Shown in pieces: positions 14,056-15,231 of a DNA stretch of 18,355 bases. The notes below the pieces were generated by a model that saw only the letters and a list, made by a program, of their open reading frames with translations, had not been told where the DNA came from and did not search any database. The DNA comes from a virus (Duplodnaviria; Heunggongvirae; Uroviricota; Caudoviricetes). The stretch is taken from positions 1-18,355 of IMG/VR virus record IMGVR_UViG_2534682080_000004; one strand, written 5' to 3'. The position numbers and the translations under genes are program-made. Positions within the stretch are counted from its first letter, which is position 1. Every line of letters starts with the position of its first letter.

Positions 14056-15231
14056 TTAGCTGTCTCTATATCTTTTGAGTTCATCATAATTTGCCTGACT
14101 CAATTTTATCACAATTTCGCATTTGTTGTCAGTGAGAATTACAGGCTTATTTGACTTTTCGTCTCCAATAGCTCCACGCATTATTTTCAACTTAAAATTA
14201 TTGTCGTTATCTGCCACTTCAATTGTAAGCGCGCTTTCAGCTGCTTTAGGAGTTGGTTCAAATTGAGGGTCAATCTGGAAACCATTAAGATTAACAAAAT
14301 CGACAAACGTTCCCTTACATTTGTGTGAATCAGTCAGGCATGAGTCAATTATTTTTGAAATATCCTCTATCTTAACGGACTTATTTCCGTGTTTATCTTT
14401 TGATTTTTTTTCCAGTAAGGATTTAACTTCATTGTCAATAGTATCACGCAGTACACGACCGAGTGAGTTTTTACTAGCAAAAATATCTATAGCACTGAAT
14501 AATTGCTGAATGCTTCTTTTATTGTCCGAATCATGTCGGCAACCTAATGAGTCTTTGAAAAAATCGCTTTTAGATTTACCTTGCAAGAAATGTACATATG
14601 AGTCACCCTTGTTTTCTGGATAACTGGCTTCGAATAAAGTTAAATCGAACATCGCAGCCTGCCGTAAGGCATCGGTATTAATTGGATTTAATCTTGTTGG
14701 GGTCAACTTATCCGAATCAAAGTCATAGGCGCTTTGTTTATCAACCATTACGATTAGAAGTTTCCCCAAATCCTCTGGTTCAGTAGACTTATAGTGGATG
14801 AAAACAACGCTCCCCCCCTGAAGTTGGGCAACTCTCGATTCGTTATTAGCATTATGTTTAAGCTTCTCTATTATAGCTCTAGATAAATCAATGAATTCAT
14901 TATTTTTATTAATGTATTTTTTTAGGATCGTAGGAATGGATGAAGGGTTGTGATCTGAGTCTAGGAAGTTATGAAATTTGTTTTTTCGGCTAAATTTTTT
15001 CTCAATTCTGGTTATGAATTCAGATGTGACTTCATTTTTTAGATCCCAAACTTCACCTAATCGATAATCAAATGCTCTTGAATCATTTTTTTCAAGATTT
15101 GCTGTTACAGCACCAATAGGAAAGTACGATTGTTTGCCCAGCACTACAACATGAGGCGTGGCACCGCATTTATCGCAAGCTACAGTTGGGTCGTCAAGAA
15201 CATTGCCACATTCTAAACAAGTTATATCCAT
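14056..15231 (-). CDS. Cargo gene A: 391-aa protein with N-terminal CxxC...CxxC zinc ribbon and a domain tentatively resembling nucleoid-associated protein YejK/NdpA (NA37)
   Basis: MDITCLECGNVLDDPTVACDKCG zinc ribbon; segments GGSVVFIHY and YVHFLQGKSKSDFFKDSLG parallel the YejK motifs GGFVLFCHY and [22 protein letters not shown] (from memory). Confidence 0.75.
   Translation of the reverse strand: MDITCLECGNVLDDPTVACDKCGATPHVVVLGKQSYFPIGAVTANLEKNDSRAFDYRLGEVWDLKNEVTSEFITRIEKKFSRKNKFHNFLDSDHNPSSIPTILKKYINKNNEFIDLSRAIIEKLKHNANNESRVAQLQGGSVVFIHYKSTEPEDLGKLLIVMVDKQSAYDFDSDKLTPTRLNPINTDALRQAAMFDLTLFEASYPENKGDSYVHFLQGKSKSDFFKDSLGCRHDSDNKRSIQQLFSAIDIFASKNSLGRVLRDTIDNEVKSLLEKKSKDKHGNKSVKIEDISKIIDSCLTDSHKCKGTFVDFVNLNGFQIDPQFEPTPKAAESALTIEVADNDNNFKLKIMRGAIGDEKSNKPVILTDNKCEIVIKLSQANYDELKRYRDS

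Follow-up and report, generated by a model that had tools for sequence, protein, structure and literature searches.

Background

Two recently described kinds of anti-phage operon, DS-1 and PANGU, each combine a relative of the Escherichia coli nucleoid-associated protein YejK with a second protein, and DS-1 is among the first cases in which a nucleoid-protein fold has been found to serve immunity. Here we analyse a DNA stretch of 18,355 nucleotides (hereafter, the window) from a virus of the Caudoviricetes (IMG/VR record IMGVR_UViG_2534682080_000004, positions 1 to 18,355), which carries two adjacent minus-strand genes, DS-1A (dsA) and DS-1B (Table 1). We show that this pair is DS-1 and that DS-1A contains a true YejK-like domain, and we argue that the pair may act in the manner proposed for PANGU.

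YejK is a dimeric clamp in which two arms dimerise, with an electropositive pore of 30 Å; it binds DNA without sequence preference, this binding requires the basic residues R173/R176/K177 and R276/R280/K284, and clamps of this type possess an N-gate that can be opened (PMC11229321). The PANGU systems are two-gene operons that encode a YejK-like nucleoid-associated protein (NAP) and an effector (bioRxiv 10.64898/2026.04.06.716658, April 2026). As described there, the NAP coats the chromosome, binds long DNA and leaves the nucleoid upon T4 infection; when freed by phage-nuclease degradation, it binds an acidic "DNA-mimicking" domain and activates the effector, resulting in abortive infection. 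In the Type II PANGU of a uropathogenic E. coli, the partner of the NAP is transmembrane in its C-terminal part, and its acidic, "DNA-mimicking" N-terminal domain is bound by the NAP with a dissociation constant of 19 nM; this system needs both of its genes, shows no toxicity from either gene by itself, and has an abortive phenotype (10.64898/2026.04.06.716658).

DS-1 itself was described as transcription unit D390, consisting of WP_000355468.1 and WP_000150292.1 (DeWeirdt, Mahoney and Laub, DefensePredictor, Science 2026, PMC13092281). It proved active when placed, along with the region predicted to hold its native promoter, on a low-copy plasmid in strain MG1655; the paper reports this activity without a mechanism or DS-1 mutants (PMC13092281). 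In Tables S6-S8 of that paper, DS-1 lowers the efficiency of plating (EOP) of Bas1 (-log EOP 7.6), Bas26 (2.7), Bas3 (1.7), T3 (1.7), T5 (1.0) and T7 (0.9), with a single plaque entered for Bas1, at the lowest dilution. Small plaques are given there for T3, T7 and Bas26, while SECphi27 shows smaller plaques alone, and the rows for DS-1 in the first of the nine parts of Table S7 contain no effect on T4. The BASEL taxonomy places Bas01-13 among the T1-like Drexlerviridae and Bas26 among the T5-like Markadamsvirinae.

Identity of the gene pair and the YejK-like domain of DS-1A

DS-1A is an open reading frame (ORF) that begins with an ATG at 15231 and ends with a stop codon at 14056-14058, encoding 391 amino acids (aa). 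Its product scores 451.4 bits against the NCBIfam equivalog NF053868 ("DS1_1_antiphage, nucleoid-associated anti-phage protein"; cutoff 330), and DS-1B scores 375.2 bits against NF053869 ("DS1_2_antiphage"; cutoff 315). The translations are 100% identical to WP_000355468.1 (DS-1A) and WP_000150292.1 (DS-1B), the DNA of the window differs from a reference copy at 3 positions, all silent, and identical DNA was found in 106 of 5,426 complete E. coli genomes. On the strength of these matches, it is essentially certain that the gene is dsA of the two-gene anti-phage system DS-1. PADLOC v2.0.0 (2023) matched neither protein; since its library predates DS-1, this null result is no argument against a defence role.

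DS-1A carries a true NA37/YejK domain, with a similarity far above chance. Pfam NA37 (PF04245) matches aa 64-376 with E=1.2e-23 and 84.5 bits, where the gathering score is 24.6, and the match covers profile positions 27-318 of 325; the published HHpred table likewise lists NA37 at 100% probability over aa 42-382 (PMC13092281). When DS-1A was compared with all PDB chains by phmmer, one protein was matched, E. coli YejK (9BE2; E=1.2e-9), and a profile of the family (41 members) retrieved the same structure at E=7.7e-20, with an extended alignment over YejK chain residues 35-287 (to about 284). An AlphaFold2 model of DS-1A, built on the family alignment, has a mean predicted local distance difference test score (pLDDT) of 85.9 and a predicted template modelling score (pTM) of 0.78; residue numbers in this model equal the native ones minus 1. 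In a Foldseek search of the PDB with this model, 9BE2 was the sole match with E<=0.001 (E=6e-15, probability 1.00, 359 aligned columns), and the template modelling score (TM-score) of just 0.43-0.49 shows that the global superposition is poor. The low TM-score implies that, while the domain folds agree with those of YejK, the predicted mutual arrangement of the domains differs. The first-pass annotation, which was made from the letters of the window, had placed a possible NA37 domain in this gene at exactly the right coordinates, on what turns out to be the minus strand. The two segments that it quoted, GGSVVFIHYKS and NPINTDALRQAAMFDLTLFEASYPENKGDSYVHFLQGKSKSDFFKDSLG, are both present in DS-1A, the YejK motifs that it cited occur in the HMMER alignment to 9BE2, and its proposal has been borne out by the Pfam profile, by the sequence and profile matches to the solved YejK and, within the limits set by the TM-score, by the comparison of the AlphaFold model with the YejK structure.

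The kinship is a distant one. Against the E. coli YejK equivalog, NCBIfam NF001557, DS-1A scores 81.4 bits, under the cutoff of 341, and its identity to E. coli YejK is about 19%; by these two values, DS-1A is a distant, paralogue-like relative and not YejK itself. In the monomer model, strand pairs and a C-terminal helix are found at the places of the two dimerisation arms of YejK (E168-170/E177-180; E335-374; H378-389, model numbering). The GKSKSDFFK motif (native K219, K221 and K226) aligns with the R176/K177 DNA-binding site of YejK, and this basic site in the N-domain is conserved across the family, native position 219 being K or R, and 226 being K, each in 39 of the 41 members.

The existence of DS-1, its anti-phage activity and the YejK annotation have already been published, and both proteins are named by NCBI. 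What is added here is incremental: the strict pairing of the two proteins, a clade-restricted ribbon, the partly retained DNA-binding sites of YejK, the head of DS-1B, which is acidic, its hydrophobic hairpin, and a swappable slot after the Q gene.

Table 1. Features of the window that bear on DS-1, with positions in the window
Feature	Positions	Strand	Basis
DS-1A (dsA), YejK/NA37-like protein with N-terminal zinc ribbon	14056..15231	minus	ORF, Pfam, NCBIfam, identity, fold
NA37 (YejK-like) domain, DS-1A aa 64-376	14104..15042	minus	Pfam envelope and profile alignment
Zinc-ribbon motif C5-x2-C8-x10-C19-x2-C22 (CLECG-x9-CDKCG)	15163..15219	minus	read from sequence
DS-1B, 404 aa, predicted membrane-inserting effector	12839..14053	minus	NCBIfam NF053869, identity, hydropathy
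DS-1B N-terminal alpha/beta domain, aa 1-165, acidic	13559..14053	minus	AlphaFold2 secondary structure
Hydrophobic helical hairpin conserved in DS-1B, aa 267-306 (QxKALTIPGALIA, loop, AILIIAGLWMI)	13136..13255	minus	family hydropathy
DS-1B C-terminal hydrophobic helix, aa 367-384	12902..12955	minus	family-mean hydropathy 1.69
Q-family antiterminator gene	12503..12859	plus	RefSeq annotation of identical DNA; sequence
Swappable cargo segment: last ~55 nt of Q, DS-1B, DS-1A, promoter region	12805..15289		homology breakpoints, GC content
Boundary block of ~91 bp with terminator-like hairpin (15349-15370 and T-run)	15290..15380	plus	cross-prophage conservation
Promoter-like site upstream of DS-1A, TTGATA-16-AAAAAT	15257..15284	minus	consensus scan only

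The zinc ribbon

The N-terminus of DS-1A, MDITCLECGNVLDDPTVACDKCG, contains two CxxC knuckles, C5/C8 and C19/C22. The first-pass annotation had described here a classic four-cysteine zinc ribbon, CLECG-x11-CDKCG: the four cysteines stand, the spacing between the two blocks is x9 and not x11, and the profile support is sub-threshold. In particular, Pfam contains no significant zinc-ribbon match, the best being Zn_Ribbon_1 with E=0.07 and 13.4 bits against a cutoff of 25, followed by the weaker DZR and Zn_ribbon_3; published HHpred results give a NinF-type zinc-ribbon match over aa 3-26 at 86% probability (PMC13092281). The motif is statistically weak alone, and the main support for a ribbon comes from the conservation of the cysteines, all four of which are kept in each of the 19 family members that have an N-terminal extension. 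These members are all of the Enterobacterales plus two others; the remaining 22 of the 41 members (from Pseudomonas, Oceanimonas, Vogesella and others) lack the motif and begin with an acidic low-complexity tail. Since the motif is absent from 22 of 41 members, the ribbon is a clade-specific accessory and not a defining part of the family. In the DS-1A model, it forms a small module of moderate confidence (pLDDT 60-68), and the residues next to it, at about aa 27-33, make up a disordered linker.

DS-1B and its pairing with DS-1A

The ATG of DS-1B begins 2 nt past the stop codon of DS-1A (TAA-TA-ATG), and the two genes are, with this 2-nt gap, translationally coupled. DS-1B has no Pfam match. 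Its AlphaFold2 model (pLDDT 85.7, pTM 0.63) shows the N-terminal alpha/beta domain followed by long helices; the domain has a net charge of -9 and an isoelectric point (pI) of 4.8, and across the family the part that precedes the hairpin has a median net charge of -7. The best-conserved stretch of the family, aa 225-285 (KKYDELYE.YTKRFSVNK.LNELDEK.LEFTSKINE.ISS.QTKALTIPGALIA), leads straight into the hydrophobic helix-loop-helix, where the family-mean hydropathy peaks at 1.99 and 2.11; the invariant residues are Q266, K268, A269, P273, A275 and A278. A segment with a net charge of +5 precedes the C-terminal hydrophobic helix. Judged by hydropathy alone, DS-1B has a predicted C-terminal transmembrane region, the helices of which are short. 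As candidates for the nature of DS-1B, a CorA-type channel and an alpha-pore-forming toxin were considered and rejected, there being no significant structural match to either and, in the case of CorA, no GMN signature.

Each of the 17 species-representative loci that have downstream DNA encodes a homologue of DS-1B (E <= 2e-41) directly downstream of the DS-1A homologue and in the same orientation. These loci come from Enterobacterales, Pseudomonas, Stutzerimonas, Oceanimonas, Marinomonas, Pseudoalteromonas and, among the betaproteobacteria, Vogesella, and the pair also occurs in P. aeruginosa and on one metagenome contig (hhalign probability 100%). By this comparison of loci, the pairing of the two proteins is strict.

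Two occurrences deserve separate mention. The homologous pairs of P. aeruginosa (loci L002-L004, genes 6001-8422) adjoin genes of a Pf-like filamentous prophage (Zot and DUF2523; neighbours 100-5442), so that cargo of the DS-1 type may also reside on, or beside, inoviruses. Further, a 2.6-kb contig (L012), binned into a metagenome-assembled genome of the Lactobacillales, contains a complete DS-1A/B pair, its DS-1A being 48% identical to that of the window; given that all other members come from Gamma- or Betaproteobacteria, the assignment to the Lactobacillales is probably due to mis-binning.

The prophage setting and the cargo slot

The window opens with proA (1-1254) and a tRNA-Thr(CGU) gene (1369-1444), which directly abuts the integrase; the site is the thrW attachment site, as used by phages of the SfII/SfIV/SfV type. 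The host element, a lambdoid prophage of E. coli, has SfII/SfIV/SfV and ECOR-derived phages as its relatives. Its integrase region (1459-2621, minus) is broken into two ORFs (1459-2247 and 2163-2621), with an indel near 2235; a sister prophage (L010) has an intact allele that is otherwise 99.5% identical, and relative to it the break results from the loss of 1 bp in a T7 homopolymer. Either the integrase is a frameshifted pseudogene, in which case the prophage would be stuck, or the missing base is a homopolymer sequencing error.

The DS-1 cassette lies antisense, directly after Q, the 3' ends of Q and DS-1B being convergent with an overlap of 21 nt (12839-12859); downstream of the slot follow genes for a holin (15494), YdfR, lysozyme and Rz. 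The content of guanine plus cytosine (GC) is 34.8% in the cassette vs 49.4% in the remainder of the window. Homology to a sister prophage that carries Kiwa ends at 12804 and restarts at 15290, which means that the final ~18 codons of Q belong to the segment that moves with the cargo. In the sister prophages at thrW (slot regions 14023-15434 in L009 and 13542-14930 in L010), the slot is occupied either by Kiwa (KwaA/KwaB) or by a DUF6731 protein together with a hypothetical protein, always antisense to late transcription. The boundary block that follows the slot, with its strong terminator-like hairpin on the plus strand, is conserved at 91% in the Kiwa prophage and at about 80% in the DUF6731 prophage, and those DS-1 prophages that have differing downstream DNA (late regions) diverge at 15371-15372. 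Because sister prophages hold alternative cargo and the homology breaks at the edges of the slot, the position between Q and the holin behaves as a defence-cargo hotspot. The window documents a slot for defence cargo after Q in thrW-integrated lambdoid prophages, and the cassette is mobile, as advanced in the first-pass annotation: its GC content is low, it lies in a lambdoid prophage, and other defence cargo is found in the same place.

A promoter scan around the cassette yielded 12 sites vs 11.1 in shuffled sequences, which is not above expectation, so that the promoter call upstream of DS-1A is weak; nor was a convincing late promoter (pR'/qut) found on the plus strand in 15232-15348, between the cassette and the terminator-like hairpin. 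Among the sequenced phages of INPHARED, none carries the DS-1 cassette. Beyond prophages, the cassette is found with at least 99% identity on two E. coli plasmid records of 35 kb and 64 kb, and at 85% identity on a 316-kb plasmid of K. pneumoniae (plasmids CP088862.1, NZ_CP146678.1 and NZ_CP093857.1, including the K. pneumoniae one). The 64-kb record also contains a Q gene, which suggests a phage-plasmid or a misassigned prophage.

How DS-1 may work

The reading that we favour, and to which we would give about an even chance, is that DS-1 works by a PANGU-type mechanism that ends in membrane damage by DS-1B. It appears the likeliest because DS-1 shares the architecture of these systems and because its target phages come from host-DNA-destroying groups. 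The T1-, T5- and T7-like phage groups classically degrade host DNA. Also in its favour are the YejK fold of DS-1A, with strand pairs and a helix where YejK has its dimerisation arms, the conserved basic site of the N-domain, the coupling and strict pairing of the two genes, and the acidic N-terminal domain and conserved hydrophobic helices of DS-1B. In such a mechanism, the DS-1A dimer would clamp chromosomal DNA non-specifically and would thereby be held apart from DS-1B. Upon degradation of the host chromosome by a T1-, T5- or T7-like phage, DS-1A would be released and could dock on the acidic N-terminal domain of DS-1B, which, in turn, would be anchored in, or would insert into, the inner membrane via its hydrophobic hairpin and C-terminal helix. 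The binding of DS-1A would turn DS-1B on, the membrane would be compromised, and the infection would abort. The first-pass annotation had guessed that a nucleoid-protein fold in a mobile cassette could be an unusual sensor, and this guess matches published work, the identical unit being the validated DS-1 and YejK-like proteins having been described as infection sensors (10.64898/2026.04.06.716658). In other words, a relative of YejK with about 19% identity was recognised from the sequence alone, and the role guessed for it has since been proposed in the literature for this class of proteins.

Several observations weigh against a PANGU-type mechanism. The basic cluster in the C-domain of YejK, R276/R280/K284, is lost in DS-1A, where the equivalent residues are P328, E332 and T336, and the acidity of DS-1B is moderate, not extreme. 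The phage used to score PANGU-Ecu was T4, for which the DS-1 rows in the first of the nine parts of Table S7 give no effect, although T4, too, degrades host DNA. The loss of Bas1 plating by a factor of 10^7.6, without plaques, is also compatible with direct, non-abortive immunity. Moreover, PANGU-Ecu is likened to DS-1 by its architecture, the preprint giving no accession numbers, and DNA binding, relocation, the interaction between DS-1A and DS-1B, and membrane damage are all predictions for DS-1.

A tentative possibility, to which we would give perhaps half the credence of the favoured reading, is that DS-1 is not simply a Type II PANGU. The enterobacterial ribbon and the loss of the C-domain cluster would then have made DS-1A a sensor that responds to something else, or to something more, for instance a phage DNA end or a protein of T1-, T5- or T7-like phages rather than bulk chromosome loss, and DS-1B would be a new kind of membrane effector, one without a structural relative. 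If true, this would explain why T4 is unlisted as a target in the DS-1 rows of the first part of Table S7 and why the block on Bas1 exceeds that on its relative Bas3 a million-fold.

Somewhat less probable, and on balance unlikely, is a direct immunity resembling that of Kiwa, in which inner-membrane DS-1B would detect attachment or DNA entry, and DS-1A, recruited to it, would clamp the incoming linear phage DNA and block its replication or expression with no killing of the cell. Kiwa does occupy the same slot in a sister prophage, and it pairs the membrane protein KwaA with KwaB in a membrane-embedded supercomplex (PMC11785009); the openable N-gate of YejK-type clamps would suit loading on DNA (PMC11229321), all the restricted phages inject linear double-stranded DNA, and DS-1 abolishes Bas1 plating (-log EOP 7.6). 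However, the growth curves of Type II PANGU are those of abortive infection, with the NAP residing on the nucleoid and not at the membrane before infection, and the small plaques of T3, T7 and Bas26 are more typical of abortive or partial systems.

Slightly more doubtful still is direct sensing, whereby DS-1A would recognise a structure of phage DNA or a phage protein, possibly via the ribbon, and would activate an abortive DS-1B independently of the degradation of the host genome. An extra ribbon on a flexible linker in the enterobacterial clade is what one would expect of an added recognition input, the unequal restriction of the related phages Bas1 (7.6) and Bas3 (1.7) suggests a phage-specific determinant, and the absence of a T4 effect from the DS-1 rows in the first part of Table S7 points the same way. 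Yet 22 of the 41 members are ribbon-less and retain the pair nevertheless, so that the ribbon cannot be the core sensor, and YejK binds DNA without sequence preference (PMC11229321).

It is quite improbable that the main role of DS-1A is to regulate or silence genes of the prophage or the host, with phage resistance as a side effect. Such a role could be surmised from the position of the cassette next to the late regulator Q and from NdpA homologues that regulate the biology of their mobile elements, for example NdpA2 of the integrative and conjugative element PAPI-1 (PMC8565334). Against it stand the defence observed from a plasmid in MG1655, outside the prophage context, the strict pairing with a membrane protein across very different contexts, including chromosomal Pseudomonas loci beside a filamentous prophage, and the bona fide defence systems that fill the slot in sister prophages. 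An equally remote prospect is a toxin-antitoxin-like pair, in which a constitutively toxic DS-1B would be restrained by DS-1A until phage-induced shut-off or degradation of the latter released it: a coupled two-gene operon with a membrane-active second gene does resemble some type II/IV toxin-antitoxin and abortive modules, but in Type II PANGU, taken as a guide, neither gene is toxic alone and the NAP is an activator and not an antitoxin, and no feature marks DS-1A as a labile antitoxin.

Comparison with known systems

Lambda RexA/RexB is, as DS-1 may be, a two-gene abortive system expressed from a lambdoid prophage and made up of a sensor that is soluble and an effector at the membrane; unlike DS-1, it is located in the immunity region; we know of no homology between RexA/RexB and DS-1. 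Pnd of the plasmid pCAR1 provides an example of an NA37-family protein on a mobile element. NdpA2 of PAPI-1 is another (PMC8565334), and the NdpA-type proteins of mobile elements differ from DS-1A in being regulators of transfer or expression that are not known to be paired with a DS-1B-like membrane protein. Kiwa resembles DS-1 in combining a membrane protein with a soluble partner and in occupying exactly the same antisense slot after Q (PMC11785009). No relationship of sequence or fold between the two was detected; in Kiwa, the gene for the membrane protein comes first, and KwaB is a DUF4868 protein, not an NA37 one.

With E. coli YejK, DS-1A shares the two-domain NA37 fold, the conserved motifs of the hydrophobic core (GG..F.HY, DLT.F/W, FL.G and DFF..LG), and the basic residues at the DNA-binding site of the N-domain. 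It differs from YejK by the added N-terminal ribbon and linker, by the missing basic cluster of the C-domain and by a pI of 6.3, where the overall pKa given for YejK is a low 4.4. Furthermore, the YejK gene is a housekeeping gene that stands alone, while DS-1A belongs to a cargo and has a membrane protein as its partner.

The PANGU systems come closer. In Type I PANGU (Pag1A with the GRel toxSAS Pag1B), a YejK-like NAP sensor binds the DNA-mimicking domain of the effector, as might be the case in DS-1; the effector, however, is a soluble alarmone synthetase and not a membrane protein. Type II PANGU (Pag2A with Pag2B) shares with DS-1 the bicistronic order in which the gene of a YejK-like NAP precedes that of a partner whose N-terminal domain is acidic and whose membrane region is C-terminal, as well as the E. 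coli host and the anti-phage function, the likeness being one of architecture with a system whose preprint lists no accessions. The spacing of 2 nt in DS-1 falls well within the Type II operon criterion (a gap under 40 bp and a non-NAP partner). The differences are that PANGU-Ecu was induced with isopropyl beta-D-1-thiogalactopyranoside (IPTG) and tested on T4, whereas DS-1 acted from its native promoter on T1-, T5- and T7-like phages, with no T4 effect in its rows of the first part of Table S7, and that a zinc ribbon, present in DS-1A, is unmentioned in the preprint. With the published DS-1, finally, the pair of the window shares the same proteins (100%), gene order and spacing, and the difference at the protein level is zero.

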